Source: Apostichopus japonicus (Eukaryota). From it: 64,000 bases of DNA. Both the position numbers and the translations under genes were made by a program. Positions 30 through 59,380 of this stretch are shown here, in pieces. Each line of letters opens with the position of its first letter. Position 1 is the stretch's first letter. The stretch spans positions 11,359,891 to 11,423,890 of the forward strand of contig NC_092564.1 in NCBI RefSeq assembly GCF_037975245.1, read 5' to 3'. The notes beneath the pieces were generated by a model. That model made no database searches. It saw only the letters and a program-made list of their open reading frames with translations, and was not told the DNA's origin.

Positions 30-1200
30 GGCCAGGTCGATAACGCGGAAACGCGGAAACCGCGGAAATCGATAAACCGGGTTCGGTAATAGAGATACCG
101 GGTTCGATATCAACGGTTTCCGCGGTTTCCGCGTTATCGACCTTGCTATATAGCAAGGTCGAAAACGCGGAAACCGCGGAAACGAGAGGAATTTGTCAAG
201 GGAGGGTGACGAAGTCTTTTGGGCGCATTTCAGCCTATATTCGCCAAAAAGGGGTGCGGGTTTAAAGCTATTTCAGTAAATGTAGGTCGAAAACGCGGAA
301 ATCGTACTTTTACAATGGACGAGTTAGATTATTTTGTCAAGGGAGGATAAAGACGTTTTTTGAGCGCATTTCAGCCAATATGCGCCAGGAGGGGTGGGAA
401 AGGGCTAAGGTTTTTTTTTATACTAAATGCAGGTCGCAAACGCGGAAATGTTTTTGTACACAATGAATGGCGAAACTAGAGGATTTGTCAAGGCGGAGGG
501 TGAAGAGTTTTCGGCGCATTTCAGTCAATATGCGCCAGGAAGGTGATGGAGTTGTAGGCTTTTCCCCTAAATGCAGGTCGAAAACGCGGAAATGTTTTTA
601 ACAAAGGCGGAACTAGAGGAGTTTGCCAAGGGAGGGAAATGAAGTGTTTTTGGCCGGCGCATTTCAGCCAATATGCGCCAGCAAAGGTGTGCGAGGTGGT
701 TTGAGGCTTTTACACTAAATACAGGTCGAAAACGCGGAAATGTTTTTAACAAAGGCGGAACTAGGGGAGTTTGTCAAGGGAGGGTGAAAAAGTGTTTTGG
801 CGCATTTCAGCTGTAATGCGCCAAGAAGGGGTGGGGTAAAATAATTTATTTTACTAAAAGCCGGTCGAAAACGCGGAATTGTTTTTTACAATGGTGAAAC
901 AAGAGAAACTAGGCACGGTGAAGATGTTTTCTGAGCGTATTTCAGCCAATATGCGCCACGAGGGGGTGCGGGAAGGGTGTAGCCTTTTTTAATACTAAAT
1001 GCAGGTCGAAAACGCGGAAATGTTTTTAACAAAGGCTGAACTAGAGGAGTTCGCTAAGGGAGGGAAATGAAGTGTTTTGGCCGGCGCATGTCAGCCAATA
1101 TGCGCCAGCAAGGTCTGGGGAGGTGGGTTGAGGCTGTTACACTAAATACAGGTTGAAAACGCGGAAATGTTTTTTTAACAATGGTGAAACTAGAGGATTT
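30..1200 (+). repeat. Foldback left arm: palindromic ~170-bp terminus plus about seven ~144-bp CpG-rich tandem subrepeats
   Basis: Unit starts 'aggtcgaaaacgcggaaat' fall at about 160, 287, 431, 575, 722, 862, 1004 and 1150. The terminus 38-150 is itself a palindrome, with 'gtcgataacgcggaaacgcggaaaccg' facing 'cggtttccgcggtttccgcgttatcgac', followed by 'ccttgctatatagcaagg'. Confidence 0.8.
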
Positions 1201-1483
1201 TGTGGTGGTTATTCCAGACATTAATCAAAGAAAATGTGACGTAGGCTATTAATATCAGAGCTTAAGTATTTCGCCATGGCATAAGTCTCAGCATACCGGT
1301 TCTTAAGCTAATAATTGAGTAGAGCTTGATATAAGTACTTCATACCCGACGAATCTAAGTGTTTTCTACATAACGATATCTCAAATAACAAACTTAAAAG
1401 AAAGAGAGTAAACACAAACGGAGGTACAATGGAAATTTTTTGATATAAACACGTATAGAACTAAAACATTAAGCTTTTTCAAG

Positions 1484-2345
1484 GTCCCGTAACACTCATT
1501 AAAGAAGTAATGATTTAGCGGTAATTTAAATCGGTCAAGCACTCTTTGGACTGGGCAAGACGCATTATGGTACTCTTCTACAATGTCATTAGAGTTCATG
1601 TTACCCAATGGTTTGGTGATCCAAGGTGTGCTGCATGGATTAGGGCCCAGAGCGTGTTCGTGGTCCCGTTACACTCATTAAAGAAGTAATGATTTAGTGG
1701 TCATTTTAATTGGTCAAGCACTCTTTGGACCGGGCAAGACGCATTACGGTACCCTTCTACAATGTCTGTAGAGTTCATATGACTCATTGGTTGGGTGGTC
1801 CAAGGCGTGCTGGTCTTGATTAGGACCCAAATGTTTTTCATTCGTTGTCCCGTTACACTAATTTAATAAGTGATTATTTAGTTGTCATTTTAATTGGTCA
1901 AGCACTCTTTGGACCGGGCAAGACGCATTATTCTACCCTTCTATAATGTCTTTAGAGTTCATATGACCCATTGGTTAGGTGGTCCAAGCCGTGCTGGTTT
2001 TGATTAGGGCCTTAAGGTGTTTTTCAGGTCCCGTTACTTTCATTTAAGAAGTGATTATATAGGGGTCATTTTAATTGGTCAAGCACTCTTTGGACCGGGC
2101 AAGACGCATTATGATATCCTTCTTCATTGTCTTAAGAATTCATATGACCCATTGGTTAGGTGGTCCAAGGCGTGCTAGTCTTGATTAGGGCCTAAAGTGA
2201 TTTTTCGTCAGGTCCCGTTTCCGTTACATTAATTTAAGAACCGATGATGTAGTGGTCATTTTAGTTGGTCAAGAACTCTTTGGACCGGGCAAGATGCACT
2301 ATGGTACCCATTTACATTGTCATTAGAGTTCAAATGACCCAGATA
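1484..2345 (+). repeat. Internal tandem repeat in the Foldback core, 5 units of ~181 bp
   Basis: Units beginning 'gtcccgttacactcattaaagaagtaatgatttag...ggtcaagcactctttggaccgggcaagacgcatta...' start at about 1484, 1663, 1847, 2028 and 2210. Confidence 0.8.
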
Positions 2346-3073
2346 AACCTCTTTTCCACGACCAAATGTTGAACATCTTGTAAGAATGCATTCGTCTTGT
2401 CATAAGTGTTACGTCGGTACCATTGTCGAATAAGTAACTGAATAGGTAGCAGTTACTCATTCGCGAACGTCGAACGAGGAATTAGTATCTAACTTCACAC
2501 CGGTATTCCAATACTGGGGAAGATGGCAGGGTTGCCAGTTTTATTGTAACGCAATCGGTCAAATAATTGTAAATGTGACTGTCTTACTTCTAATAGTTCG
2601 CAACTTCAAGTTCATACACTTCCTCCGAATCGTCCCCCAAAACATAGGTTCTATGTATTCTTTTCATAAACGATCAAAAGCTCCTTTGCCGTCCCCTAGC
2701 TGTGAAAATTCTCTAGTTCCGCCATTGTACATACGCACCTTTATATATACCGACGGGGTGGCCCCAGAGGGGGAGGGAGAAGCGGGGTAACAGTCCCCTT
2801 CCCCTCGTCGGGGAGGTCTAGCCCCCTGGTAGGGGAAATTATGATTTCGTCAGGGAGCAATGAAGAAAAAAATATATTATTGTGTATTTCTTATCATCAT
2901 AATGATCATTCTATGATAAAGATAAATGTAGGAAAATCAGTCCCCGACAGGTGTCAGCCGCACCGACATACGGGCTTCAAACTTCTCTCATATACCAAAA
3001 AAGACACCACAAATTACCGCGCGCTTCGGCAATATTAGATTTATATATACATAGATATGTATCTGTATGTGCA

Positions 3074-3081
<8 letters not shown>

Positions 3082-3104
<23 letters not shown>
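3082..3104. repeat. (TA)n microsatellite abutting hairpin element copy 1
   Basis: Direct read of the sequence. A second AT-rich run lies at 3283-3350. Confidence 0.9.
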
Positions 3105-3282
3105 GAGTAGGTTGGCGTCTATCTTGGCGCAGAGTGCTCTATGTCCATTGGACAGAGCGGAATATATGTTGATACTAGATGAGACTAGTGGAACACTAGT
3201 AGATTGTCTGAAGATCGCTATAAAGCGTGAAACTCCGAGTTACAACTACTAGTGTTCCACTAGTCTCATCTAGTATCAACAT
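3105..3282. mobile_element. Small hairpin/palindromic element, copy 1 (truncated left arm), nested in the Foldback core and embedded in (TA)n
   Basis: The 56-bp head 'agagtaggttggcgtctatcttggcgcagagtgctctatgtccattggacagagcg' precedes palindrome arms 'gatactagatgagactagtggaacactagtag' and 'ctactagtgttccactagtctcatctagtatc'. The same module occurs at 26205-26420. Confidence 0.7.
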
Positions 3283-3309
3283 ATATATACATATATATGT
3301 ATGTGTAAG

Positions 3310-3345
<36 letters not shown>

Positions 3346-3479
3346 TTTTTTTATTAATATTACAACGTGCACACAATTGTTTCCGGGGACCTTAGCTCCT
3401 GTGTCGGAGAAATCCTGGAACCATCCCTGCATACCAATTGGACGTTAACAAACATTACTGAGTTTTCTGCCTGTATTTA

Positions 3480-4564
3480 GTGAAAAAAAGCTTCAAACCC
3501 AAACCCTAATTCTTGGCGCATGTTGGCTGAAATGCGCCCAAAACATTTCTTTACATTTCCTGCATGCATTTAGAGTATTTCCGTCATTGTTAAAAAAAAT
3601 TCGCGTTTTCGACATGCCTTTAGTGAAAAGACCTCAACCTCACCCCTTTCTGGCGCCTATTTGCTAAAATGCGCCCAAAACACCTTTTCACCCTGTCTTA
3701 ACAAAATCATCGAGTTGTGAAAAATGTTGTGAAGAAAAAAAAATTCGCGTTTTCGACATGCCTTTAGTAAAAAGACCTCAACCTCACCCCTTTCTGGCGC
3801 CTATTTGCTAAAATGCGCCCAAAACACCTTTTCACCCTGTCTTAACAAAATCATCGAGTTGTGAAAAATGTTGTGAAAAAAAAAAAAATTCCGCGTTTTC
3901 GACCTACACTAACTGAAAAAAGTCTCATACCCCCACTCCATCCTTGCACATATCGGCAAACACTTTTTTCCGCGTTTTCGACCTGCATTTAGTGATAAAA
4001 GCCTCAACCCCCTCCCCTCACCCCTTCCTGTCGCATTTTGGCTGAAATGCGCAGATCAAAAACATTTCTTTTCCCTCCCTTAGCAAACTCCTCTAGTTCC
4101 GGCTTTTCTTGAAAACATTTCCGCGTTTTCGACCGGCATTTAGTGAAACAAAATCTTCTATCCCCACCCCTCCTGGCGCATACTGGCTGAAATGCGCTCC
4201 AAATTTTTTCACCCTCTCTTGACAAATCATCTAGTTTCGCCATTGTAAAAAAAAAACATTTCCGCGTTTTCGACCTACACTACCCTCCCTTGACAAAATA
4301 ATCTAACTCATCCATTGTAAAGTACGATTTCCGCGTTTTCGACCTACATTTACTAGCTTTAAACCCGCACCCCTTTTTGGCGAATATAGGCTGAAATGCG
4401 CCCAAAAGACTTCGTCACCCTCCCTTGACAAATTCCTCTCGTTTCCGCGTTTTCGACCTTACTATATAGCAAGGTCGATAACGCGGAAACCGCGGAAACC
4501 GTTGATATCGAACCCGGTTTCTCGATTTCCGCGGTTTCCGCGTTTCCGCGTTATAGACCTGGCC
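3480..4564 (-). repeat. Foldback right arm: inverted copy of the left-arm subrepeat array plus terminal palindrome
   Basis: 'cgcgttttcgac' unit starts fall at 3603, 3751, 3893, 3970, 4122, 4263, 4333 and 4447. The terminus 'ccttactatatagcaaggtcgataacgcggaaaccgcggaaaccgttgatatcgaacccgg...' is the reverse complement of 100-200. Confidence 0.8.
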
Positions 4565-4574
4565 CAGTATTAAC
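4565..4574. repeat. Right target-site duplication of the Foldback element ('cagtattaac')
   Basis: Matches 20-29 exactly. The element is bounded by 'ggccagg...cctggcc'. Confidence 0.7.
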
Positions 4575-4732: not shown

Positions 4733-4828
4733 ACCATCTAAGCGGAGCACCACCATGGGTTGGCACGAAGCGTACAAGAAAATTTTGGGATCTTACGGCC
4801 CCTCCGATGGCCGGAAACATCACTTCCC
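4733..4828 (-). repeat. ~95-bp dispersed repeat, copy A (module '...aagtgccatttcc..aaaattttcttgtacgc..cgcgccaac.catggtggcgct.cgcttagatagt')
   Basis: The reverse complement of 4733-4828 aligns with the copies at 10770, 11450, 11926 and 29231. Confidence 0.7.
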
Positions 4829-6001
4829 GGGTCATCTAAGCTGAATCTATACTGTTTCCTTATATGTATTGTGTCTATTTTTTTTTCATTCCAGAGGAGA
4901 AAATTTCTTGAAATAAAAAAAATCTCTGAAATTTTGCGGACGCTGTAGCGTTCACGTGTGTCGTAACGGTATATTATTTTTCACGAATCGTATAGGTAAC
5001 GTTGCTTTCAGCCGGGCATATTTAGCACGATCGGCTTTGAGTAATTTCCGATCCTGGCGGTTCTGAGATAATTCGCATTTTGGTGTGATGAAATGAATTT
5101 CACGCTAGCAATGATACACTTTTACAGGAAAAACTCTGTGGGCCTACAATGGGGGAGATTCTTCAAAAATGCGGGAGTTTTTTGGAAATGCGGGAGATTC
5201 GGACAGGTGGGCGGGTGAGCGCTAGACGACCCGAAAATGCGGGTGACACCCGCCCAAAGCGGGTGACTTGGAAGCACTGAGTATTACTCGTGACTTGTGC
5301 GGTACCAAACACATGTTACATCCGAGGCATTTTTACGACTGGAGGGGGGGTGGGGTGCTCATCTTTTGACATTTTTGGCATTCCTATGCAAACTGTAAAA
5401 GTAGTATGCAGTTTTCCCTGCATACACTGTTTTGTCTTATCTGACACAGTCTTCAATTTTTCACATATATTAGGGGTAAAAAACATCTTTCATTTGGAAT
5501 ACAGAACATTCATTCTTTGATGCTGTACTGAATATAGGTTATATTGTGACTATTTTTAAACGAGATTATTAAAGTCGAGACAAACTCCGAATTTCTTGTT
5601 TTGTCATTTGTTTGGTCTTACGTCACCTTAAGCTTCCAAAGACATAAAAATAATGTAGTAATAATAAAGTATGTCGTGATTAAAATCCCTCAGGCTGGGA
5701 AAAAGAACAATAGGCAGAACCATTTATTCGAACGAGACCCCCCAAAAAGCGAATTATTATAATTAATTAGCGATGTCAGGGCTTTGCTCACACGAAATGT
5801 CATCTTCTGCTTACATACATGGTTTCCTTTACGTTGTTCGCAGTCGATGAATAATAAAAAGAACAAAAAACCAAGCGTTTTCGGTAAGTTGTTAGTAGCT
5901 TTCTTGTAAATTACAAGTGTGCGACAAAGGTTTCCAGAATCGAATACTAGTAGTCCTTCTTTTTTTCTTTTGTGAATACTCCCTCATTTTAATAAAAATT
6001 A

Positions 6002-7091: not shown

Positions 7092-9083
7092 AGGCATCAA
7101 ACTACCACTACATCTGAAGTAAGATATGAATATGATATGCAGTTACTTTTTGTTAGTTACCAACATCAAAAACAGTCTTCCCAACTCCAAAATCGTCAAG
7201 GACACTCATGATTACGTCATTCTGCTATCATATTTAATTGGTTGAAAGAATCTCTTATATATCACTTACCGCAACTTTGAGGTTTTTCTACTTTTAAAAG
7301 ACATAGTAAATGAGAATGATCCCTTTCTTAAAGACTCAGTAAAAATATGAGAACAACTGACCTCGGAGACACCCGAGACAACTTAACTACCTACGTGACC
7401 AATTTTTGGCTCATTCTTGCTTAGGGTCATTATATTTCAGCGTCACGTGTACTTGTTTCATCACGCAGATACAGAGATATATAGACGAGGAGGGCTGATA
7501 GAAGAATAATTTTTCTAAACAGTAACATAAACTGTCGTCCCCGATATATTCTATTTTAGTCCACTACTAACCATCATAACAGGATATTCTTTATCTTTGT
7601 AATCAATCTCAGTGCCTTTTGATTACAACTATACCTACTAGCGTATCGAGAAAGTCTTTTCTAGGATAAAATACTGACCGAGAAATTGTGTAAGAGCAAC
7701 AGGGCGTAAATAATATACTATACCATAAAGAGATCATTGTGCCACTGTTTAAGTGCAGTGTGCTTATAGACCTATGTGTTACATCAGGTTGATGTGGTTG
7801 TGTATCTACCTATATTGTATCGTTTACTCTAGAATACTTTAATTAAAGGGACACAAGGAGATCAACAAATGCTGCGGAAGGTGGCTAATTCTGGGAGGGA
7901 GGGGGGGGGGGGGATCAAAAGTTCGAATAGCAGTTGGACATGTGATTTTGATTTGAGGGAGCAGAACAGCAAAAAGATACGCCCCGACAAAATGGTACTC
8001 TGCGTATTTTCTGTACGACAAATGCCATGATTCGAATGAGTTAGACTTTCAAAGTTGTACCAAACAATAACAGTTGTTGCTTATAGCGGAGTAGTTGATA
8101 TACTTACGGACCAGCAATGTACTGTACATGCTTTGGTTGTATAATACATTGCCAGGGAGTAAAGGTGAATATATATATTGCGGTTGTTGCTTCATCTTGC
8201 ATGTTCTTTAGCACCCCCCGACCCACCCACCCCACCCGCTCTCCCTATTAATTATATTTCTCTTATGACGTTATTTCATCGATTTCACTCCCCCATCGGT
8301 TTTATTTCTTTGAGAGATGACGTTCCTTTAAATATCAGACTCATTAATTACAGTAGCTGGACTACCACGTCTAGCACACAAAACATTCGGGCATCTATTC
8401 AGAATCTATTCTAAAATTAATGGAAATATGGTTTTATGGTCTCAAATAATTCTTCACATGCCTTATACAAAGTTGTCAATGACAGAAATCTTGAATATTA
8501 TCATCAAGAGAGTGTCCCGTTTTTTCCCCTCATTTCTAAAACAAAGGGTTAATATCAATAATTGAATCCGGACTCATAACTTATTAGCCGACCCCATTGT
8601 TTCAGGCTTAAAGGATCATTCCATGACAACTATATATGCAGGCCCGTCGCACCCGCTACGGTAGGTACGGTATTTACCGTACCACTTTTCAGCTAAAAAC
8701 AAAGAGAGAGGGGGAGAAGAAAATAGGTGAGGGAGTTAGAAAATACAGTTCGAATCAATAAAATGCACGAGTCTTCATGACCAAAGCCGACCCTCTGTAC
8801 CATCATTGTGTCCTATGATGCGATGAGCCCCGGATGAGCCGGCACGAATTATTCAACGAATCTCAAGTTGTAACTGGGGCGATAGGGGCCTACGATTCGA
8901 GTCGCACCGAATTTCCCCAAACCCCCGAATTCCCCCCATTTCCCTAAGAAGGTGTCAAACCCGGAGATGTTTTACTTAGTTGAGCAGTGTAACAGTAAAT
9001 ACCGTCCGGATAATTAGGGCAACGTACAATGTATAGGGCGTGTCCCCGCGCTGCGCTACACCGGCAACTCAACGCAAAGGAAA

Positions 9084-9635
9084 GTGCCAGCCAGATTAGT
9101 TTCTGGTTCGGCCGCGGATATCATGCCTCCAGAATCAGTGGAGGACTACTTCAGGCGAATATACCTGGAGGCAGTTGACACCATTGTCAACTGCATCCGC
9201 GATAGATTTGATCAGGAGGGTTACAAAATCTACTCAAAACTACAGCAGCTGCTTCTCAAAACGTGTAACCAACAACATGTTGACGAAGAACTGTTAAAAT
9301 TCGTATGTGACTTTTACGGCGAGGATCTCCGTAAGGGCGAGCTCAGAGTCCAACTAGAAACCCTTGGGGAAACCATGGAAGCTACGGCCAAACAATCAGA
9401 GTGGACTTTGCCAGAGGTTGTTGACCACATGCGAGGGTTGAGTTTCGGTAATCGTGAGCTCCTCTCACAAGTGTGCACGCTTGTCAAACTAATTTTAGTG
9501 ATGCCTGCGACAAATGCAGTAAGTGAACGCTCATTTAGTGCTATGAGTGTAAAGAGTTACTTAAGGTCTACAATGACCCAGCAGCGACTCAACCACCTTA
9601 TGATCTTACATGTACACAAAGATTATGCGGATTGA
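9084..9635 (+). pseudogene. hAT-superfamily transposase remnant (C-terminal hAT dimerisation region only)
   Basis: The translation ends '...LVMPATNAVSERSFSAMSVKSYLRSTMTQQRLNHLMILHVHKD', the signature hAT C-terminal dimerisation motif. ZMYM1-like, ZBED-like and P52rIPK-like proteins all share the '..SERSFS....K..LRS.M...RL..L..L..' pattern. No upstream ORF encodes the BED/RNase-H-like catalytic part. Confidence 0.7.
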
Positions 9636-10346
9636 TTGAATCTAGTTGATGCAGCCAACGAATTTACCAGTGCCAAAGACCATCGACGCTCGGTGTTTGG
9701 TACTTTCCATTGATTTGAGTTCGCAGTAGAACGCTGCACACTAACCGATAGCCGGTGCTCCTTTTAACAGCGCCCATGCCCAGGAGCCCATGCTCTTCAG
9801 TATAGTAGTCGTTGTGATACCGGGAGCTTATAGGAGCATTAATTCCAGGAAGAAAGAGGGCTAAATTATACGAAAAATGCTCACATTTGCTGACCCTACA
9901 ACTCTAATCCTCAACCCTAACAAAGGATACAGTAGATCATCCTATACAACTGAATTGCTACAGGCAATCGGGTAATATCCTATATTCTGCGCCCCAACTG
10001 CAGAAAGAACAATGCTTGGAATTTGGAAATTGGAAAAAGTACTGCAGTATGGAGAGGATTCCACCCAGGTGTTGGTTGTCACCAACGCCGTAACGAAATA
10101 ATCATTGTTAACGTTTATTGCATAATTTCAAAAGCCTCACAGAGACTAACCGCACTCGGCGAAATCTTTGCTCACCCACAAAACATTTTTGAGGCCCTAA
10201 CCTCAAAGGAAGGTAGACTAATTGAGGAATCATTTTAGATAATCGTAACACTCATAAGAACTAGCAAAATTATCAAATTCGGATAAACTGTAACTATTCA
10301 GGTGCGTATCCAGGGGGGGACGTTGGGGGCGCGCGCCCCCCAGGTA

Positions 10347-10476
10347 AGGAAAAGAGGAGAGAAAAAAAAGAGAAGAAAAAAGGGAAAAGGAGGGGAAAAA
10401 AGAAAAGGAGGAGAAGAAGGAAGGGAAAAGAAAAAGAAAAAAGAGAGAAAAGGGAGAAAAGGGAGAAAAGGAGGGA
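10347..10476 (+). repeat. ~130-nt pure polypurine (GA-rich) / polypyrimidine tract
   Basis: The + strand is almost exclusively A/G: 'aaggaaaagaggagagaaaaaaaagagaagaaaaaagggaaaaggaggggaaaaaagaaaagg...'. It generates mirror-image spurious ORFs on both strands. Confidence 0.9.
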
Positions 10477-10769
10477 GCAGAAGATAGCCAAGACCTCGGG
10501 AAGAGAAAGATCCCTATTATATACACAGGGTAGCCAGTGACAGATCAAGGATTACGGAGGGGGTGTGCGCCTCACCCTACCCCTTACCCCGACAACTCCA
10601 TTTTGACGTTCCGTTTTTCCTCTCTCACTAATGTACTTGAACTCGACCGAGTCGTCGGGGAACATAACGCATTTCGGGAAGGGGGCGACCGCCCCCCGAG
10701 CAAATTTTCTTTATGACATCGCTAGTAATTTCAAAATAGACAATGCTTAGATGCAACTTACAAGGCCTG

Positions 10770-10864
10770 GGAAGTGTCATTTCCAGCGATCTGGGAGGCA
10801 TTTTCGGCCAAAATTTTTCTTGTACGCTTCGCGCCAACTCATGGTGGCGCTTCGCTTAGATAGT
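10770..10864 (+). repeat. ~95-bp dispersed repeat, copy B
   Basis: 'ggaagtgtcatttccagcgatctgggaggcattttcggccaaaatttttcttgtacgcttcgcgccaactcatggtggcgcttcgcttagatagt'. It is followed at 10893 by a solo MITE terminus 'cctacgcctatg'. Confidence 0.7.
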
Positions 10865-11449
10865 TTGCCTACAGGCTTCGCCCCCGTCTCCTACGGGACC
10901 TACGCCTATGAGTGAAGTGTTCGGTTTCGATATACCTGATATCGGAAATATCTGCTATTTTTCTGTTCCTTCAACCAAGTTTTGTAAAAGCCATTATAAG
11001 AGGTTGCAATATTTCTACACCAATAAATTAACTGTGTCGGAATTTTCCAAAATTTCCTCACCAACATTCTTCATCATACTTTCCTCTACTCGTTCAATTT
11101 TCACCTGTCTGTTAGGGGTTCAAGGAGGTTTTTCTATATTGGTTGTCTATAGATTGAATTTTGTGCAACATTATGGGTATGTTTTCAAGTGATTTTATTC
11201 ACGAGAAAAGGGAATTTTCAAATTCTCAACAAGTAATGGGCTTAAAACCTTCAAAAGTGGGGCTTTCGGATATTGTGGGCCGTGACGTAGAATAACCTAC
11301 AAAAGCAATGATCCATAGGACATGCAATCAGGTCGAACATGATGTGTGACTGGTGACAATCTTCAAAAAGGTTATGGATGGAAAAAAACTTTTGGGAAAT
11401 ACTTGGTTCTCAGGCAAAAGTGTACATCTAGTTGCTCATTTTCAAGCCC

Positions 11450-11544
11450 GAGAAGTGCCATTTCCGGTGATCTGGGGGGTATCAAAACCAGAAATTTTCT
11501 TGTACGCTCCGCGCCAACCGATGGTGGCGCTCCGCTTAGATAGT
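11450..11544 (+). repeat. ~95-bp dispersed repeat, copy C
   Basis: 'agaagtgccatttccggtgatctggggggtatcaaaaccagaaattttcttgtacgctccgcgccaaccgatggtggcgctccgcttagatagt'. Confidence 0.7.
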
Positions 11545-11925
11545 AATTCGCGCCCCCGGGTTAGAAAATCCTGGATACGCGCCTGCTATTACAGTACAGG
11601 CAGTTCTGAACCTTTCATTTATTTTTACTGGCGTAACGACGGTGCGGCCGTCCCGCCACTAAGTTGGAAAAGACCTCCAGCCCGTCGGAATTTCTACCAT
11701 TCATACCCCTACTATAAGACCCTAGCTAGTAGCTATACCGCCCTGCATACACTTTGTAAGTTCAAAGTGCTATATGCTCTTCCGGTGCAGCTGTGAAGGA
11801 CATGGGCGCGAGAAGGTAGAACATCCATGACTAAAGATGGGATTCTTCAGTTCATGTAGTTATAAATGAAAAAATACTGAGTTCGCAGGAGGAGAGTGTA
11901 CAACATCGTGGCCAAATTTTGCCCC

Positions 11926-12018
11926 GCAAGTGCCATTTCCAGCCATCTGGGCGGTTAGAAGATTCAAAAATTTTCTTGTACGCAGCGCCAACCGATGGTG
12001 GCGCTCCGCTTAGATAGT
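11926..12018 (+). repeat. ~95-bp dispersed repeat, copy D
   Basis: 'gcaagtgccatttccagccatctgggcggttagaagattcaaaaattttcttgtacgcagcgccaaccgatggtggcgctccgcttagatagt'. Confidence 0.7.
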
Positions 12019-13195
12019 AAATCGAACCGGTCAACAAAAATACCGTACCACTTTCAAATACCTTCCGACGGGCCTGTATATATGTACATATTAAACTATA
12101 GTAACTTGAAAACGGAAGTAGCCATATACAAATATTGCCTGCAGACTACTAAGACACAGAAGCGAGTTCAATAAGACAATAGATAATTAACAATGCCGCG
12201 AGAGTTTGAAACAAAGTTTTTATTATGAAGTTAACATATTCCGGGCGTGTGAGTGACAACTTCAAGAATTTGAAATAAAGTCGTCCGATTAATTTGATAT
12301 GTGACTCTCAGAAAATGCTGCGCTTTTAAACTACCGTATATAATGTATAGTGAACTGGACCGTTCTTAATATCTGAACTAAAAAGGACCAGTTCGGAACT
12401 GATGTTGCGAAAACTTAATCAGACGGAAGGAGAAAGCCCTCGTGCAACTGCAGAGATGAACAATGGTTACTGTATGTATAATTCAAACCCGAAAAGTATA
12501 TATTCCATTCGAGGAACAGATAGTATTCCTTAGATAATTACACGTACCAGTTTGTGTATAGCCTGTGTGAAGTGGAGTAAAACCTATACAGTTTTGTTTA
12601 CGCCTTCTCTGAGTACAAATCAACCATATTTATACAGATCGGGTGAACTCTTATTATGTGTACAGTTTTTCAACTTAATGAAAGTGTCAAGGAAAATTTC
12701 AATATCGCTGCATTAGAAGGATGATTTACGGGATTTTGTTTTTATTTAAACCAGTAACATGAGTAACTTTTAATGTTCCTGATTGATATGGGAAGTTTAT
12801 TTCAATGTTGGAACTGCTTGTTTTAATGGAGTAGCGGATTTGGGTTGTTGTTCTTTCCATTATCACTTACATATGCGATCGATAGTTGAGTAATTACGTG
12901 ATGAGGATTTGATAAGTCATTGAGTACTTTCGATAGTGTTGGACATTTTGTCGTCATCGATATTTTTAATTCAAGAGAAAGCTCTTAAGAACAACCTTTG
13001 TGATGCCAATGTAATAAGAGCATTATTTATTTAGCTTGGAAATAAAACGTTTTGCAACTTGAACAATTTTGCGACTTATTTAATGTCAATTTTGTTTTTT
13101 GGTTAATCCATCTCTACATAACACTACGGGGAACTATTTATTCTGCTACCAAACTACGACTGTGAAACAAATCCTAAAGGGATACTTCAAGCATC

Positions 13196-14497
13196 ATGAA
13201 TATTCATTCAAAGGGACCCAATCACGGCCGAAAGAAAGCCATTCGGAATGCAGAAATAGAAGCACATCTTCGAAATAACGCAGTTGACGCAACTCTTGAG
13301 GTACAAATTGCAACATTAAACGAAAAAGAACGAAAGACCACCAGAAAGTTACAGACGCAATCTCGTAGTCTCTTAGAGTCGATACAAAGCGTCAAACTAG
13401 GACGCAGACAGCGTAATAAATCACTTCCGCGTAATTCGATGGTCCGGTCACGGAGTGGAAGTTTGACATCTTCTATCCCGAGACCCAGGACCTGCTTAGC
13501 TGATACATTCAATGTCGAACAGGGAAATGGCGTAGAAGTATTAAAGCTGCCTTCCATTGGAACGAAGTCTTTTGACAAAAATCGAAGTCTGCGCAGACTT
13601 AACTCTTCAGCACTGCAAAGGCGACGATTCAGTGAAAATGACGCGCTCGTTGAGTCACTGCGACGATTTAATGCGTTACGCATCGATGATTCGAATAATG
13701 AGTCTAGTAATCAAGACGACGGTCCGGAAATCTTACCTGTTGAACTGCCGAAATCGGCCAGACTTAGGGGCCGATCAGGGTCCTGTTTTGGGCGCCTGAT
13801 ATCTCATGCTGTTCCAGAACAAAACGACGACATTGTAATAGATACGGATCCACTCGAGAAAACCTATTCGACCATTAACTGTGCCGAAGAAAATATTTCA
13901 GGATCACATGACAACGAAATAAGTACTCAGAACCTTGACAAACAGTTAGAGAGTAAGACAAACAGATTAGAACAAACCGATAACCGCGATTCTGATATCG
14001 ATGCTGAAACGTGCACCGGGGATGTTGATGATGAAACGAAGTCTGAATATGAAGATGACTTAGCTAAAATCATACCCAAAATTGTGATTTCCGAGCATAA
14101 AAATAATTTGCCATCTCCGCCGAATGACGACAGAGCCAGTTCAACAAAAAGATCAGAGAGATCACTGCTATCTGCGAATCCGAGAAGACGTCTCTATGGA
14201 ACGCCGTCTGCACAGTCTGACTGGAGTAGGAATAAACCACTTCGTGAGGCCCGAAAGAAAAACACCTCCATATTGCCCTCGACATTCGCTGCTCTTTCCA
14301 TGAGTCGGAGGTTTTCGAGTCCAGATCCCTCAGAAGATGCAGTAAGAGCTCAACAAAGATTCCTAGAAAAGCTTAATCGTAGACGACGAAGCGAACAGAA
14401 TGAACTAGCGCAAAAGGTTCAAGAATTTATGAAACAATATACGCTTAGTAATAAGGAATTAGTTGATGAAGAAGGGGATAATGAAATAACTGAATAG
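13196..14497 (+). CDS. Intronless 433-aa ORF encoding a Ser/Arg/Asp/Glu-rich low-complexity (predicted disordered) protein with short coiled-coil segments and many RRxS-type motifs; hypothetical protein
   Basis: The reading frame is 1302 nt long, uninterrupted and non-repetitive, in roughly 38%-GC DNA where random ORFs rarely exceed about 80 codons. The ATG context is 'catcATGA' with A at -3. It matches no repeat family in the window. No domain was recognised by eye. Confidence 0.55.
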   Translation: MNIHSKGPNHGRKKAIRNAEIEAHLRNNAVDATLEVQIATLNEKERKTTRKLQTQSRSLLESIQSVKLGRRQRNKSLPRNSMVRSRSGSLTSSIPRPRTCLADTFNVEQGNGVEVLKLPSIGTKSFDKNRSLRRLNSSALQRRRFSENDALVESLRRFNALRIDDSNNESSNQDDGPEILPVELPKSARLRGRSGSCFGRLISHAVPEQNDDIVIDTDPLEKTYSTINCAEENISGSHDNEISTQNLDKQLESKTNRLEQTDNRDSDIDAETCTGDVDDETKSEYEDDLAKIIPKIVISEHKNNLPSPPNDDRASSTKRSERSLLSANPRRRLYGTPSAQSDWSRNKPLREARKKNTSILPSTFAALSMSRRFSSPDPSEDAVRAQQRFLEKLNRRRRSEQNELAQKVQEFMKQYTLSNKELVDEEGDNEITE

Positions 14498-17400
14498 AGT
14501 GTGAGCCCAGAGAGGTCATCAGTGGACATGACGAGGTCAAATCAAAAGTAAGAATATCTATGTGCCATATATGAATATGGTGTCATACACGTACCTAAAT
14601 AGTCAACAGTGCCCAAACTACAGGATACGCTATAACCGATTAAACTCAGACGGCGTTCCATAAAATACATTTACAACAGGACTGCAACAACATAGAGACG
14701 GTTACGCACTGATGGAGAACATTATATATGTTAGAAAAGTCACGTAATGGACAATCATTACACTGTCAGTGTCAGCCGTCTGAGCATTCTTTCTCATCGA
14801 GAGATTTCAATTGTCTAACTGAACACACAAGCTCAAATTGTTCAAAAGGAGCTCAAAGTGATCAATAACGATGACCTTTATGTATTTACGACTTTTACAA
14901 ATAACTCTAATTTTCTTATTTCTTGTTCTTTCTTTCTTGCTTTCTTTCTTTGTTTACCCTCCTTTATTTTGTCTTGATGTATGGTCACCTTTAAACACTT
15001 TAAAAATGTATTATGTTTATGGAACATAACATCATGTATATAACATTATATAGTAAACACATGGAAAATAACAAAATATGTCTCAGTATGCGTACGGCGA
15101 TAAATATTGACGCCATTAAGGCTTATTGCGATTAGTTGTCCGTTCGACAGGATATTCAGCAAGAATTATCGCTTATAACCCTAAATTTTAAAGATCTAGA
15201 AAACTATAGATTTCAAGTTAATGTATAGTAAAGTGTATGATATTAATGAGTAATGCATCGTGGTTTCTCTAATCCTTTACCGATGTTCTATTTCTATCAG
15301 CTTTACAGTCATCGATCAAAGATAATTTCTGTTTCCTGTAATTTCATGTTTTATCTACTAATTATAATTATCTTCCACATTGTTTGTGTTTGGCCTTGTG
15401 TTTGGCCTTGTGGATTCTTCACGTCAAGTCTTCAAGTCATCAACGTACTAACAGCATGACATTAATAGTGAATGCCATTTACGTGTACACAAGTCAGCGT
15501 CTGTCGTGTAGCGCACCGTAAGTCACACACAGTTTTGTGAATAAAAGTTATGCTTATTAGGGAGAAACCAAATAATATAATTAAACTGTAAGCAATTAGC
15601 AGAGGTTCGACTTGTTGTACCCCCCCCTCCACACCCTCTCCCCTACCCACCAATACCATCATATCACACACGATGTCTGCTACAGCAATGTTCATGTTCA
15701 ATATGATAAATATCCTGCAGTTAAGAAATAGAAATCATGAATACGTATACAAATCATTTATAACAAAATCCGGTGTTTAGGTAAGTCAACGTGTCAGGGT
15801 AAATCTGTCTCTTCAATAGTCAATTTGTTAATGATACATTACTTTGCTACCTTAACAGTTGCATATCGAGTATGAACAACTACTATGAATCATTATGAAA
15901 AGAATAAATCGTTATGGACTCTTAGTAAGTTATCTTGTACTATTCTATTCGTTATATAATTTATTCAATATTCACTACTAATAAAATGTGTGATATTCTC
16001 TCCAGCATTGATACAGTCTCTCCTCCCCCTCTCCCTCTCCCTCCACCTCTCCAACGCCCTCTTCCTATTATTTTTATTTTGTTATTATGGGGGGGGGGTC
16101 TTTTCTTTCTTCAGTGTCTGCGAAAATATTAGACGCAATCACACGATCGCGATCACACGATTTCGTTTTACAACGAAATATACCTCATTAAACGACAAGC
16201 ACTGCTATCAGGTCCGTAGCTAGGTGATGCTCAGGTGGAGGATAGTGGGAGGGTGGGGGTGGCACAATATAACAATCAATGTATCACCTGTACGCAAAAG
16301 GTTCGCCGTAAGTCTCGAATATATATTGTGTATACATAACCGATGCATGTTGCAGTAGGGATCCCCGCTGCCCCTTCCTAAGTTAACGTCCCTATTATAT
16401 ATATATATACGATATTTCCATGCAATCTCTCACTTGGTTATAGAAGCTAGTTAGGTTTCGTCCTGTGGTCAGTTTTGTCTGCATTGCAGGGATCATACAG
16501 TCGTATGCTGAACAAGAAGTGATAGCCTGTCGTGAAAACAGGGATATATTTAGGTTCGATGCACTTTTCTTCATAACAAAAATTATGGCAGGATCGGATT
16601 TAGCATAATCTATTTATTAAAAAATAATAGAACACGACATATACCAATAAACTATATTTTCCCGAGCCCTTTCGATATTTTCCAGGACCCTCTAATTGAC
16701 CCCGTAACCCCCTAAACAAAAAACAACACGTTGTATTCATGAAGGTGGAAGGTTATTTGAGGTCAACAGTAGTCAACGTGTCTACGATAAGTTCAAAACT
16801 CAGCCTCTGTGAACGGTCTCACATACAATGTTAATTCACCTAAGTGATTTCAAGAACATTGTTTTGCTGCAGGGAAGCTGAGAAATGAAGTCAAAGACTG
16901 AAAACCATGTAAGTTCGGTGAAAAACAAGTGGTATGTTCGTGTCTGTCACTTTGAATGTTCTAATATCAAGTATATGTAGGCTACAGCTGTTATGTCAGA
17001 ATAAGTCATGCGCATGTCAAGACAAATTGGAATTATATTGTTTGAAAATTGAAAAAGATTCGACATTTACGTCATTACTTGAAATGAAAGCTGACTTTTG
17101 TAATGAATTGCATTGTTAATGAGATAACTTATGGTATCAAAAGATATATAAAAATGAAGCCTTCAATCTGATTTAATTACTTCAAGAATACTGGATTTGA
17201 ACATCATTCTTAGCCTTAATATCGCATTAATATTTGCCGTGATACGAGGAAGTTAGACGAAGGTTGGACTAATGAAGATTTTTTTATCCTTCTTTGAGGA
17301 TTGTTTTTTTTTACTACATTCTGTTTTCACGTCACGTTTCAATGGGTTTTCTTGTTACATTGATTGTATAAGACATTTATTTGCTCAAGAGTGTGACATT

Positions 17401-19589
17401 TATTCACGAGAATAGAGACATGTGAAATGTAGAATTACTAGCGGCCTATTGACAGCAGTGCAATTATAAAATAATGTATCCTAAGAATTGTCATGCACGT
17501 TGCTTAATGTGAGGAAAAAGCTCAGTTTAGTCTTTCATTGATACAATTACTAAATAGAAACCCACACTTTATGTAATGTCATATAGCTGTGTGAAATGTA
17601 CACTTGAATTAATTATACGATGATCCTTATCTATATGGTATTCGTCAGTGAGAAACTCCTACTGACAGCCTTCTGGTCATCGGTCAAAGAAAGAAATGAC
17701 TTCACCCAGGGGGGGGGGGGGAGAATTTGAACATTGATCACATTAATTAATATGCAGTGCTACATTTAGAGTAATGACACCCAAAGGGGGGATTCAGTTT
17801 GGCACGATTTTTGCATACGTTTTCAAGAGGACAATGACTTCTTAATGGAATGTCTATTTCACAGTACAGCCAAAGAATAATGTAATGATAAAAGATTCGT
17901 TGAAGTAAAAAACAAAATCATTTCATATATACCAAACTAAACTTCAAGTTGGATCAATATGGTGTCAAGCAACAGACTTGAAGTAAGTTTAGCCTCGGGG
18001 TAATATTTCTAGAAATCTTACATATAGTACAAAATGTCCTATAGTGTACAGTACATAAAAAATATATAACACCGTAACACCTGAGAAAACGTTCTTGAAC
18101 TACGTTTCAAAAGTATCTATCCATTTTTGCCAGAATTTTTCAAACGTGAGGTGGGACACCCGCCCCCCCCCCATCCCCGGTTAAGGAACCCTCGCCTGGA
18201 CGATTTAACATTTATCCCACTCCCAATACAAATATGTGGTTACGCCCCTGGCTAGGATAATGTTTAGAATAATTAAAATTGCATTGATATTGCATTATGG
18301 CACCTATTCATGATAGCTGGGGATTTTAAACGTGCATGTAGAACACAATCCATTGTTTCTGTTTACTCGTATAGGTCTGCATACAACCATCAGACGACGG
18401 TATAAACAACATGAAATGGTTGAAATCAATGTTCTTTGAGGAATTTATCAATTCACAGCTACTGTTTCTCTTTCATTGATAAGCTGTTTAAAAAAAAAAA
18501 AAAAATGCTGTTTGGTTCGGACCTTTCCATTTCTTACGGCCAATAATTGAAAAAAAAACAAGCGCCAACTTTGTCATTTGTTGCGATTAAAACATCAAAC
18601 GCGCAACGCTTGTCATATTGGGTTATATATATACAATCCGGGAATCCCGAAATATGATATATATTGTGATTTATATAGACTTAAAAACACAACCTTATTT
18701 AAATCAATATGTAGTTGTGATTTGTTTTTACCTTGTCGATACATCAAACCTGAGATCAATTCCACTTTATTGACCGACTTGAAAGTGATACCATATATAC
18801 ATGTCCCAATTTCACTCTGTAGTTTTCATTATGACTCATAATGACATAAAATAAAAACCTGATTTCCCCCCATGCATTTATAGTGATATTTAGTACTGAT
18901 TGCTTTTATCTGACTATAACATTAATTCCCTCTTGTAAGCATTGTTCATGTGATTTTGTTATATATTATCAATATGACCTATAGCAAGTTACCCCCTTGG
19001 TCACTTGTTACTATTTATATACTGCACGATTGACTTTTTCCCTCGGAGATTCCCCTTGGCCGAGTTTTTAACCCAATTTTTTTAGTGATCCAAGTTTATT
19101 ATGTAATTCTCAAGTTAAACCTCGAAAACCTGAAATAACGAAAAAAATCAGATGAGTAGCAATTTATGTAATGGAGCACTGGGACACACGCATCCTCCCA
19201 TGTGATCCTATAGTAGTTTTGAACTAGAAAATACTGCACTTAGGCAGCTGATGGAGAAGATTGGGGGGCGAGGGGGGCGGGGCGAAAGTTCCCTCGTTTC
19301 GTCTTATATTTTACGAATGTTAAAGTTAGTCCATTACATGATCTTTTCTTACTTGTCAAGCTTGTTTGAGTTATAACATCTCTTTTGATCGTTTATTAAA
19401 ACGATAAGAAGAATCGATTCGTCGATTTAAAATTGTTCAAGACAGCTTCTTCTCTCTTAAAACTTGTCCGTCACACTTTTTTTATTTTCTGTCAGAATCA
19501 GTATTACATTTAGGGAACAGAAATGCAAAACATTGTTCGACACAGAAGATAAGGAATGTCAGCTATAACGGCCGATGGAATTAAATTAT

Positions 19590-20085
19590 GCTACACATCT
19601 ATGGCAAGCCATGCGGGGCAAACACTGCATAATATATCCGCGTATTAATTCGAATATATACGCGTATTAATTCGAATATATGTGTTATAGCCTACATGTG
19701 TAAAGTTTCGCTTTTTGAAGCGATCTCACGAGACCCGCCAAAACATTTATCGTTGGCATATGTACACAGCAAGAGCGGAAATGGTTTTTTTCGTGTAACT
19801 CTAATTAATCCGTGCATATATTGGATTTAATCCCCATATCTATTTTATTTAATACGTATATATATTCGAATTAATACGTGTATATATTCGAATTAATACG
19901 TGTATATATTCGAATTAATACGTGTATATATTCGAATTAATACGCGGATATATTTAAGCCATATGATTGGCTAATAATATATACGCGTATATATTCCAAT
20001 TAATACGCGTATAAATTCCAATTAATACGCGGATATATTATGCAGTGTTTGTCCCACATGGCTTGCCATACACATCAGGCTAGAG
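19590..20085. mobile_element. Small foldback-type MITE: ~100-bp inverted termini containing 23-bp tandem subrepeats (2 copies left, ~7 copies right), ~160-bp unique core
   Basis: Left arm 19590-19690 reads 'tatggcaagccatgcggggcaaacactgcataatatatccgcgtattaattcgaatatatacgcgtattaattcgaatatat'. It is the reverse complement of right arm 19850-20085 '...atatattcgaattaatacgtgtatatattcgaattaatacgcggatatattatgcagtgtttgtcccacatggcttgccata'. A possible 6-bp TSD 'cacatc' flanks both ends. Confidence 0.65.
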
Positions 20086-20544
20086 CCAAAGACGTACATA
20101 AAATTCTACCCCCCCCCCCACCCCCCTTCCTTCCTCACTCGCCCAGTTGCTAGTTAATTTCCATAAGAAAACGGTTATTCAATGGCCTGAATTGAAATAA
20201 ATTCAGCTGCATGATTTTATTCAACCTGCGTGTTTTCCTGACTTTAATAAATCATATTTGAAACAATTAATAACAATATTTTTTTTGTGCGTTTAGATGC
20301 CACCACTCCATTCAAATCACAAATCATGCGCATGCCAAAATGGAATTGATCAAGTTATCACAGACAACTTATAACTGATAATTTCTCGAAAATGGAAAAT
20401 GTGTAAAGAGATTATATCGATTGTGATTCAACGATTGCTTAATATGCTAACATTAGTTTAAAAAAAGTACCAAATAAAACTTGCAACACACTTTCAGACA
20501 TTTCCTACTTTTTTTATCGTTTGGCAAGATGAACGACATCTGCT

Positions 20545-20721
<177 letters not shown>

Positions 20722-22018
20722 GGCAGAAACGTTGCCTAATCTACGAGGACCCTTTTCATTACTTTAATTCATTTTATTTATATAATACACCCGATAGCAT
20801 TATGCCATTTTGATTTTATTCCTCTGACAAGTCTGATATCCCAGGATAATAAAACGTATACTATATAACTATTTCTAGCAAAATGAAGAAACATAACAGA
20901 TTCAAGTAATTCCCTCAAGAATAACTGTGACTCCTTTGGTCATAAATAATCAAACTAAATCAGTTTGGCTGGGAGCAATTGTTATCTCCCAAAATGTTTG
21001 TGCAATTATGGTTACTTCTTCGTTTCTCTTTATTGTCTGTACACGTGACCAAGATTGGACACGAGGTTATAAAATCTTAACCACACTGTCTGTGTTTGGT
21101 GTATATGATGAGTGGCATACCTTCGAGCCATGTGCTGTTACTGTAAATTATATTAAATTATATATTGTTGATATGGAGATCTATTAATGTAATATTTAGT
21201 CTCTAAATCGACATTTGTTAGATTTGCTGAACCTGTTTGACATCATGAATTTAAGCTTGACAAAGGGAAGTCTGAAAAAGACGTAGAAGGTATAATAGGG
21301 GGAGGGGGGGGGGGGGTGGTAGTCAAAGATGGCAGTGTCAGTATAGCGTGTTCGTTACATTTGAATTTAATATCCACGCCCATCTGAAATTTATAAAATT
21401 GATCTTTAATCGTTATTGGTATTGTTATTTTGTGAGGTTTCAGTCGGGTGATTAAAACGATTTATAAATGCCATCCGTCTTCATATCTGCTCAATAAGTC
21501 CAGACTCATCCTTAGTCAGGCATTCGATCATGATGCAGGGACGACGGGGCCTGATGGGGGGGGGGTGGACAGGGGCATTATTCCCCTCCCCTCCCAGTTC
21601 TTTATCATATCTAAAGAAAAACGATAGCAACAATAGTGTTCATCGATTAAATAATAATATAGTATAAAGGCCTAATCATTCAACATTTGAACAAGCCTTA
21701 ATTTGCACAACAAGCATACAGCACCGCACACGACGGTACAGCCGTACTACAAGAAATGCCCAGACCCCATAATGACAACTCTTTAGAAGGGCAGGGGAGA
21801 GAGCAAGAATTAGTGAACTTGGCTCTTAATCTATGTACAGCGTGATAAATTCGCAGGATTAACAGTAAAATAAGGCGTTTAATCCTCCACTGCTTCACAA
21901 CTGAACCCCAACCCAACCATCTGTCCATATCATACACCTATAGTCTGAACGATACAAACAAGGATATTACCATTTTGAAACGTTACAAGTTTGAAGAGTA
22001 AATAATATGTGAGAGAAC

Positions 22019-22385
22019 CAAGGGCGTAGGAACCGGGGGGGCTGGGGGCGCCAGCCCCCCAGTGAAAAATGCGGAGGGGCGGAAGTATCATTCCGCCCCC
22101 CCCCGCTTCTCAAGTCAGAAAACCCCTTTTTCATTTCAAAATGAGAAAAAAAATCTCATTTGGAGCACCAAATTGCATCTAAGGCCAGGTGAAAATACAA
22201 AATTAAGTTTACAAAATGGAGTGGGTGTTGAAGTGTGCTATATTACACCAAATTGCATCTGAGGCCACCTGGAAATGCAAAAAATTCCAAAGGGGAGGGG
22301 GTTTGCCCCTCCCCTTAAACCCCTCCCCCAGGCCGGCCATAAGTCTTCAGCCCCCCCACTCAAAAGTACCTTCCTACGCCACTGG
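22019..22385. mobile_element. hAT-like MITE, copy 1 (367 bp), TIR 'caagggcgtagg'/'cagtggcgtagg', perfect 8-bp TSD 'gagagaac'
   Basis: The TSD lies at 22011-22018 and 22386-22393. The interior holds G/C homopolymers and GGGGAGGGG..CCCCTCCCC hairpins ('aaggggagggggtttgcccctcccctt'). An 8-bp TSD with a CAG..G terminus is the hAT hallmark. Confidence 0.7.

Positions 22386-26135: not shown

Positions 26136-26204
<69 letters not shown>
26136..26204. repeat. (TA)n microsatellite, left flank of hairpin element copy 2
   Basis: Direct read of the sequence. Confidence 0.95.

Positions 26205-26208
<4 letters not shown>

Positions 26209-26418: not shown

Positions 26419-26420
<2 letters not shown>
26205..26420. 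mobile_element. Small hairpin/palindromic element, copy 2 (full ~70-bp perfect arms) flanked on both sides by long (TA)n
   Basis: Same 56-bp head, then a perfect palindrome centred at about 26338: '...actagtggaacactagtagttgttactcggagtttcacgcgttatagcgatcttcagacaac|tgttgtctgaagatcgctataacgcgtgaaactccgagtaacaactactagtgttccactagt...'. Confidence 0.75.

Positions 26421-26506
<86 letters not shown>
26421..26506. repeat. (AT)n microsatellite, right flank of hairpin element copy 2
   Basis: Direct read of the sequence. Confidence 0.95.
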
Positions 26507-26512
<6 letters not shown>

Positions 26513-54295: not shown

Positions 54296-55186
54296 AAAGA
54301 GGCGCGATGGCTTGGCGCACTGTACGAGCTAATGATCGAGATCCTCTTTGGGATCCGTGGTTCGAACCCCGGTGATGACGTCTTTTGCCGATCTTTTACA
54401 GCTCGTGCCTACACGGGGAGCTGTGAGTATTAGTTAATCCATCTAATATCTCAGTCCATACAGTGGCGCGATGGCTTGGCGCACTGTACGAGCTGATGAT
54501 CGAGACTCTCTTTTGGATCCGTGGTTCGAATCCCGGTGATGACGTCTTTTGCCGATCTTTTACAGCTGGTGCCTACACGGGGAGCTGTAAGTATTAGTTA
54601 ATCCACCTAATATCTCAGTCCATACAGTGGCGCGATGGCTTGGCGCACTGTACGAGCTGATGATCATCTCTCTTTTGCATCCGTGGTTCGAACCCCGGTG
54701 ACGTCTTTTGCCGATCTTTTACAGCTCGTGCCTACACGGGGAGCTGTAAGTATTAGTTAATTCACCTAATATCTCAGTCCATACAGTGGCACGATGGCTT
54801 GGCGCACTGTACGAGCTGATGATCATCTCTCTTTTGCATCCGTGGTTCGAACCCCGGTGACGTCTTTTGCCGATCTTTTACAGCTCGTGCCTACACGGGG
54901 AGCTGTAAGTATTAGTTAATCCACCTAATATCTCAGTCCATACAGTGGCGCGATGGCTTGGCGCACTGTACGAGCTGATGATCATCTCTCTTTTGCATCC
55001 GTGGTTCGAACCCCGGTGACGTCTTTTGCCGATCTTTTACAGCTCGTGCCTACATTGGGAGCTGTAACTTAGTTAATCGGCATAATATCTCAGTCCATAC
55101 AGTGGCGCGATGGCTTGGCGCACTGTCCGAGCTTTTGAGCGAGACTCTCTTTTGCATCGGTGGTTCGAACCCCGGTGACGTCTTTT
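54296..55186 (+). repeat. Tandem array of six ~162-bp tRNA-like (SINE-head-like) units directly 3' of the LINE
   Basis: The unit reads 'acagtggcgcgatggcttggcgcactgtacgagctgatgatc...ccgtggttcgaa(t/c)cccggtga(tg)acgtcttttgccgatcttttacagctcgtgcctacacggggagctgtaagtattagttaatccacctaatatctcagtccat'. It has D-arm-like 'gcgcgatggcttggcgc' and T-loop-like 'ggttcgaatcc'. Unit starts fall at about 54301, 54466, 54626, 54788, 54947 and 55107. Confidence 0.8.
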
Positions 55187-58872: not shown

Positions 58873-59380
58873 GTATAGTATGCATACAATGATGTCATGT
58901 AAGCTACTGTATTAGTTTAGTAATGTAATCATACAGTAGTATTTACTGCATGTTGAAGACCGTAGTTACTGTACCAAACATTGTGTATACGGAATATATG
59001 AGAAATATTGTACATGTTGTAAATGCATTATAATTCCAAAATTTTGCTTTAAATAGGTTTCTTGTAGTGGTGAGGCGGATAATACCAGTGACTAACTATA
59101 CAGTAGTTTTTCTTTGTTAGTCATGATTATACTGTACGAGAATAAAGTCCCATGGGCATATCACTGTACATAGAATTAGTGGAAATTTTGCAATTTTTTG
59201 ACTTTGTGAAGTTTGAAATTTCTGCAGAAAGTGCTGGCTTATGCTACAGTAGTTCATTTATAAATTTGGTACGTAGCTCTGTTATGAACAGTCTTGAAAC
59301 AGTTGTGTATATGAATGTAAATAAGCTGTTGACAGACTTTCTGGGACACATAAATTATTACAATATTTCATATATTCCAG

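Follow-up and report, generated by a model that had tools for sequence, protein, structure and literature searches.

Positions 19600-20070 of the 64-kb window, meaning the whole stretch of 64,000 nucleotides of Apostichopus japonicus DNA that was analyzed, contain a 471-bp inverted-repeat element that we regard with high confidence as a mobile MITE. The fuller account, which we hold with good but lesser confidence, is that it is a foldback-type, non-autonomous cut-and-paste MITE present as a recent presence/absence polymorphism, with a probable IS3EU/GingerRoot parent. That superfamily is the most likely parent, and the assignment taken on its own is tentative, with about an even chance of being right. 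The element has terminal inverted repeats (TIRs) and an abutting target-site duplication, it is small and non-coding, and an empty site gives evidence of mobility. It is an ordinary kind of transposon. The original prediction of a small non-coding foldback-type MITE with unequal numbers of subrepeats in its arms was upheld, with a TIR of 82 nt and 2.3 versus approximately 10 repeat units.

The boundaries were determined by direct reading of positions 19300-20400 together with repeat finders, and the G+C content of the element is 33%. The features that had been predicted at 19590-20085 were essentially there, and the nucleotides of that span outside the element proper are flank. The TIR arms (19600-19681 and 19989-20070) are 82 nt each and 94% complementary, with five mismatches, and each is composed of a 31-bp unique terminus and a 51-nt block of subrepeat (Table 1). 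The consensus of the terminus is TATGGCAAGCCATG[C/T]GGG[G/A]CAAACACTGCAT. It yielded exactly two matches within the 64-kb window, mutually inverted, where shuffled sequences gave an expectation of zero. An inverted terminal unit with a single C/T difference had been proposed; it is found at both ends and inverted, with two differences (C/T and G/A) between the left and right copies. The proposal that the termini are themselves built from the subrepeat had to be amended, since each arm ends in the unique 31-bp sequence. The element ends TATGGC…GCCATA, i.e. 5'-TA…TA-3', and the inverted complementarity extends on both sides precisely as far as the terminal TA. Arms and arrays together account for 350 of the 471 bp and both arms contain 22-bp units, which is a foldback-type layout. 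The longest open reading frame is 44 aa, and a six-frame composite translation of the element compared with 5.8 billion proteins revealed no homologue in any frame. Folding of the element as single-stranded DNA gives a branched hairpin (-123 kcal/mol, z = -16.5), in which approximately 19913-20019 of the right arm forms a separate side hairpin with the spacer at 19957-19975 as its loop. The observed/expected CpG ratio of 2.4 is consistent with youth and speaks against long residence under methylation-driven decay.

Table 1. Features of the 471-bp element and its flanking duplication (positions in the window).
Feature	Position	Strand	Evidence
Left target-site duplication copy, CACATC	19594-19599		Direct reading; single CACATC in empty allele
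Left 31-bp unique terminus TATGGCAAGCCATGCGGGGCAAACACTGCAT, starting with TA	19600-19630	+	Pattern search
Left subterminal array, 2.3 x 22-bp units, inverted relative to right arm	19631-19681	-	TRF
Unique non-coding core, 121 bp	19682-19802		No repeat, no similarity elsewhere in window
Inner right array, seven 22-bp units	19803-19956	+	TRF, pattern search, register alignment
19-bp spacer AGCCATATGATTGGCTAAT	19957-19975		Direct reading, register alignment
Outer right array, three 22-bp units	19976-20039	+	Pattern search, register alignment
Right 31-bp unique terminus, + strand end …GGCTTGCCATA	20040-20070	-	Pattern search
Right target-site duplication copy, CACATC	20071-20076		Direct reading; empty allele

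The subrepeat period determined by TRF is 22 bp (consensus AATTAATACGCGTATATATTCG) and not the 23 bp originally given; the unit quoted with that figure was itself 22 letters long. The unit is near-palindromic, with 18 of 22 positions self-complementary in one register, and includes TACGCGTA and TTCGAA. When up to three mismatches were allowed, the 22-bp pattern gave 11 matches in the window, all 11 within the element, with none expected. The left array contains 2.3 copies with 96% matches and reads, from the inside outwards, as a partial unit, a canonical unit and a junction unit (AATTAATACGCGGATATATT), the last of which abuts the 31-bp terminus in the left arm. On the right, TRF reported 10.9 copies with 77% matches over 19803-20039. 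In the inner right array, two degenerate units are followed by a CGTA variant, then by three identical CGTG units and finally by one junction-type unit; the outer array consists of a unit that is a perfect 20-bp palindrome, a TTCC-variant unit and a junction unit, followed by the terminus. Two copies of the junction unit are thus present in the right arm. The earlier count had been two units on the left and about seven on the right; it fell short on the right, where there are approximately 10 units and the 19-bp spacer had been missed. The left 51-nt module differs by one mismatch from the inner right module and by three from the outer one; over 19904-19954 the complementarity to the left array is 98%, and the block 19989-20039 is part of the 82-nt inverted repeat. 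The spacer holds a small palindrome, AGCCA…TGGCT. Its context, …ATATATT-TA-AGCCATA/TGATTGGCT-AAT-AATATAT…, loosely resembles truncated termini joined tail to tail (GCCATA / T.ATGGC). The spacer could be the junction of two truncated termini (…GCCATA/TGATTGGC…), a reading based on 6-7 nt of similarity, which is below significance.

Evidence of mobility came from a second allele. A piece of GenBank entry MRZV01000063.1, from the Apostichopus japonicus assembly GCA_002754855.1 (PMC6586643), was compared with the window by megablast. The two sequences share approximately 98% identity (97.8-98.3%), and the window is therefore a second haplotype or assembly of this species, or comes from a very close relative. 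The 433-aa open reading frame at 13196-14497 corresponds to an annotated protein on MRZV01000063.1, with eight synonymous differences between the alleles. The megablast blocks break at window positions 19599 and 20069, with an 8-bp overlap on the MRZV01000063.1 side. The empty allele reads …attatgctaCACATCaggctagag… (in longer context …ggaattaaattatgctaCACATCaggctagagcc…); it has one CACATC, at 16359-16364 of the compared piece, corresponding to positions 446131-446136 of MRZV01000063.1, and contains neither the element nor a footprint. The filled allele exceeds the empty one by 477 bp, the sum of 471 and 6. A search of the compared piece for the 31-bp terminus found it absent. The probability of an abutting 6-mer match by chance is approximately 3.5e-4 from base composition and 1.5e-3 empirically at the same spacing. 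Since the empty allele carries a single copy, CACATC is confirmed as a true target-site duplication, as had been suspected, and the recommended check for an empty site was thereby also successful. The element is a transposon insertion polymorphism and not a local inverted duplication. We infer that the polymorphism arose by insertion; alternatively, the sequence, being hairpin-prone, could have been deleted precisely between its 6-bp repeats, in which case the empty allele would not be the ancestral state.

Three further indels in this 21 kb are likewise insertions of elements, each with a clean empty site; the polymorphisms are thus natural and not assembly noise. A foldback-like element at 30-4564 is flanked by a 10-bp target-site duplication (CAGTATTAAC, at 20-29 and 4565-4574) and is absent from MRZV01000063.1, where a clean empty site lies at approximately 4821-4830 of the compared piece. 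Its termini read GGCCAGGTCGATAACGCGG… (GGCCAGG) and its inverted arms are made of subrepeats of approximately 141 bp. The GGCCAGG termini together with the 10-bp duplication suggest a Mutator-like affinity, as is usual for foldback elements (PMC4079207), and this element is probably a polymorphic, Mutator-like foldback transposon of a different superfamily from the 471-bp MITE. A 3.4-kb hAT element at 8639-12076, likewise absent from MRZV01000063.1, has 11-bp ends (CAGGCCCGTCG…CGACGGGCCTG) and an 8-bp target-site duplication (TATATATG, at 8631-8638 and 12077-12084), with the empty site at approximately 8882-8889 of the compared piece. It carries an open reading frame for a dimerisation domain at 9084-9635. 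The hAT open reading frame is 88% identical to a Holothuria leucospilota protein, which is high for different holothurian families. The third indel is a 3.2-kb insertion found in MRZV01000063.1 only (approximately 17870-21036 of the compared piece), with CAGGGGCGGATCC… ends, reading CAGGGGCGGATCCAGG…CCTGGATCCGCCCCTG, and an empty site in the window at approximately 21637-21644. An open reading frame of this insertion gave a weak reverse-transcriptase match (28.1 bits vs. a Pfam cut-off of 29.6). Four transposon-sized indels in 21 kb indicate high structural heterozygosity driven by class II elements.

Which transposon family could have mobilized the MITE depends on how the duplication is read. 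The direct repeat extends to 8 bp (19592-19599 = 20069-20076). In the empty allele TA directly precedes CACATC, and formally the duplication can therefore be taken as 6 bp long with symmetric TA…TA ends, as 7 bp with a one-nucleotide asymmetry between the ends, or as 8 bp with an asymmetry of two nucleotides. The 6-bp reading, the only one with symmetric ends, and the 5'-TA…TA-3' termini correspond to those of IS3EU/GingerRoot, for which a 6-bp duplication and mostly TA..TA termini have been described (PMC10045372); the TA…TA termini are also given as a criterion in PMC6839031. The element thus resembles IS3EU/GingerRoot (Repbase IS3EU-N; Selaginella, corals) in its TA…TA ends, its 6-bp duplication, its fairly long TIRs and its marine invertebrate host. 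GingerRoot has been found in corals, oysters and fish, marine invertebrates included (PMC6839031), and IS3EU-class repeats have been annotated in a sea urchin genome (PMC11316814). GingerRoot has inverted repeats of 100-150 bp in Selaginella, and its duplications are in rare cases 7 or 8 bp long (PMC6839031). Our element differs from GingerRoot in size (471 bp vs. a described 3.9-12.9 kb) and in TIR length (82 nt vs. 100-150 bp), the latter range being descriptive of the Selaginella elements and not superfamily-defining. The tandem 22-bp subterminal repeats and the foldback asymmetry also set it apart from published descriptions of IS3EU/GingerRoot (PMC10045372, PMC6839031).

A different origin would follow if the right terminal TA were part of the target. 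The element would then be a non-autonomous hAT-type transposon with an 8-bp duplication (TACACATC) or a P/Galileo-type transposon with a 7-bp duplication (ACACATC). We consider this unlikely, while giving it more than token weight. The empty allele does carry TACACATC once, in agreement with the extension of the repeat to 8 bp. Within 12 kb there are two polymorphic elements whose termini read CAGG…, each with an 8-bp duplication, and the hAT dimerisation domain described above lies in the window. Subterminal repeats are classic for hAT elements, and the P superfamily includes the foldback-like Galileo, which makes 7-bp duplications. Like hAT-derived MITEs, our element is small and non-coding with repeated subterminal motifs, and active hAT elements are nearby. 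In a sea urchin repeat annotation, hAT was approximately 17 times more common than IS3EU (PMC11316814). However, hAT makes 8-bp duplications with symmetric ends, and at this locus both the hAT and the P reading need ends that are asymmetric by 1-2 nt (5' TATGGCAAGCC vs. 3' …GGCTTGCCA), whereas under the 6-bp reading the two ends remain symmetric down to the final base. In addition, the termini resemble neither the CAGG… ends of the local hAT copies nor the general hAT end motif, and no sequence similarity was found between the element and the hAT copy of the window. A descent from the 4.5-kb foldback element as a deletion derivative of the same family has, in our judgment, next to no chance of being correct. 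Both have inverted arms of tandem subrepeats and both are polymorphic insertions in the same region, but the best match between them is 17 nt (E about 0.09-0.4, no significant similarity), their termini (GGCCAGGTCGATAACGCGG vs. TATGGCAAGCC) and duplications (10 bp, CAGTATTAAC, vs. 6 bp) differ, and so do their subrepeats (approximately 141 bp vs. 22 bp). As far as sequence allows, this kinship is refuted. The MITE had been called a miniature of the 4.5-kb element; that description is apt for the architecture, and it does not extend to genealogy, as similarity, termini and duplication lengths all disagree. The foldback architecture common to the two is presumably convergent.

Two further explanations were considered. 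One holds that replication errors at this locus produced an inverted duplication or palindrome, together with an expansion of the 22-bp minisatellite, and that the structure never transposed. The element was single-copy in all sequence searched, and a near-palindromic unit (18/22) would ease hairpin-driven rearrangement. We nevertheless judge this explanation very improbable: the other haplotype lacks all 471 bp and exactly one copy of the 6-bp repeat, with no trace of core or termini, and a local duplication needs a local template. As neither allele has a template for core or termini, a purely local inverted duplication is ruled out. The other takes the locus to be primarily a hairpin-RNA or miRNA gene, which would be compatible with a transposon origin and which we think has only a slight chance of being right. 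The fold is very stable, and the side hairpin (19910-20020) weakly matches several AT-rich miRNA precursor models. Against this, the Rfam matches reached 19-30 bits compared with gathering thresholds of 74-119, occurred on both strands and belonged to unrelated families; no match was obtained at the gathering threshold, the best sub-threshold one scoring 29.7 bits against a threshold of 96.2. A locus missing from one haplotype is also unlikely to be an essential gene. Among other transposon classes, a Tc1/mariner (Stowaway-like) TA duplication was rejected, as the empty allele has one CACATC and this class would need a pre-existing CACATC-TA-CACATC. Ginger2 (TG..CA ends) and Polinton (AG..TC ends; PMC6839031) make 6-bp duplications and fit the termini worse. 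Dada inserts into snRNA or tRNA genes and is without terminal inverted repeats (PMC3706591); here there are 82-nt TIRs, and no RNA gene is present in the flanks.

Directly observed are the anatomy of the element with its exact boundaries, the target-site duplication, the empty allele and the absence of coding capacity. The mechanism that we propose is the following. A trans-acting DDE transposase encoded elsewhere would recognize the 31-bp termini and probably also bind the near-palindromic 22-bp subterminal repeats, which recur at intervals of about two helical turns, so that the sites would lie on one face of the helix. Having paired both ends, the transposase would cut at the terminal TA and move the element by cut-and-paste; integration through a 6-bp staggered cut, followed by repair, would have duplicated CACATC. 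Both the identity of the transposase and its binding to the subrepeats are inferred.

The unequal arms (2.3 vs. approximately 10 units) would be the product of tandem amplification and segmental duplication inside the 22-bp array. Slippage or unequal exchange, as originally proposed, is a plausible route for such amplification, since three adjacent units are identical and share CGTG, a derived state produced by a CpG transition, and register alignment shows a TTCC variant common to two adjacent units. The two junction units of the right arm likewise reflect amplification in the array. The haplotypes differ by approximately 2%, and the arms by 6% and approximately 8 units, so most of the asymmetry, together with the five arm mismatches, was probably inherited from the source copy and not made here. 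The array expansion most likely took place in the source lineage, prior to insertion.

Additional copies were sought at several levels. Searches of the 64-kb window by blastn-short and nhmmer, for which the complete element, its inverted repeat and its core served as queries, returned no further copy, and no paralogous empty site was found in the window. The extra sequence of the compared MRZV01000063.1 piece contains no copy either. Two Holothuria leucospilota loci, 42 kb in total, had no copy and no alignable flank; one of them holds a 48%-identical homologue of the neighbouring 433-aa gene. An exact-pattern scan of JGI metagenomes for the terminus and the 22-bp unit, and a search of GTDB genomes and IMG/VR for the terminus pattern, each gave zero matches in collections with essentially no holothurian DNA. 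Exact-protein look-ups of the open reading frames inside and beside the element identified no additional copy. A Pfam scan of the 99 stop-free stretches of at least 75 aa in the window detected no integrase/rve domain; the domains found were hAT, zf-RVT, MetRS and GST only. The papers searched contained no description of the 19600-20070 element or of MITE polymorphism in A. japonicus.

In its general layout the element is comparable to known foldback systems. Sea urchin TU elements are of the foldback type and have the same arm layout. Drosophila FB and the Tetris/DAIBAM elements of D. virilis share with our element unequal arms, in which a variable number of tandem repeats follows a unique outermost domain, and a short middle part that is non-coding, and Tetris and its relative DAIBAM (tentatively a MITE) pair a long element with a miniature one (PMC4079207). 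Foldback elements generate 8-10-bp duplications and are mostly placed in Mutator (PMC4079207). Our element departs from the FB type in its 6-bp duplication (at most 8 bp) with TA ends, in arms of tens to hundreds of bp and not kilobases, and in its 22-bp unit.

What began as a pattern seen by eye is now verified as a mobile element for which an empty allele exists. This stretch of the genome carries at least four insertion polymorphisms of DNA elements in 21 kb, which implies very recent activity of class II transposons in A. japonicus, an aquaculture species; such insertion sites are convenient presence/absence markers. If the IS3EU/GingerRoot assignment is true, the terminus provides a defined end sequence for finding the autonomous partner, and the element would be among the few signs of recent mobility of this little-studied integrase-like superfamily in an animal. 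A bolder proposal is that the element is an IS3EU/GingerRoot-type deuterostome MITE, active now or until very recently, whose ends have evolved a foldback layout of 22-bp near-palindromic repeats, putatively transposase-binding; we find it conceivable and somewhat doubtful. Should it be true, it would suggest that Apostichopus japonicus harbours a live integrase-like system of cut-and-paste transposition. The MITE and the 4.5-kb element would then represent independent foldback evolution in two superfamilies, side by side within the same 20 kb.

Several other features of the window were recorded. Positions 20107-20127, 20548-20714, 26136-26205 and 26419-26509 hold long perfect (AT)n microsatellites, with up to 83 repeats, and a poly-C tract that lies just to the right of the MITE and is not of the same length in both haplotypes. 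A segment of approximately 90 bp (approximately 22246-22340) matches three places in one Holothuria leucospilota locus with 72-81% identity and is probably a short interspersed repeat common to holothurian families. At 54301-55186 a 159-bp unit is repeated 5.5 times in tandem (94% matches); its consensus, with a GGTTCGAACCCC motif, has a tRNA-derived look, ARAGORN found no tRNA in the window, and the array may be a tandemly amplified SINE-like sequence. Three of the 99 stretches scanned across the whole window match the class I methionyl-tRNA synthetase domain, and a GST C-terminal domain is encoded at 60928-61347. The methionyl-tRNA synthetase and GST matches may be exons of one methionyl-tRNA synthetase gene in the region of approximately 59000-64000.
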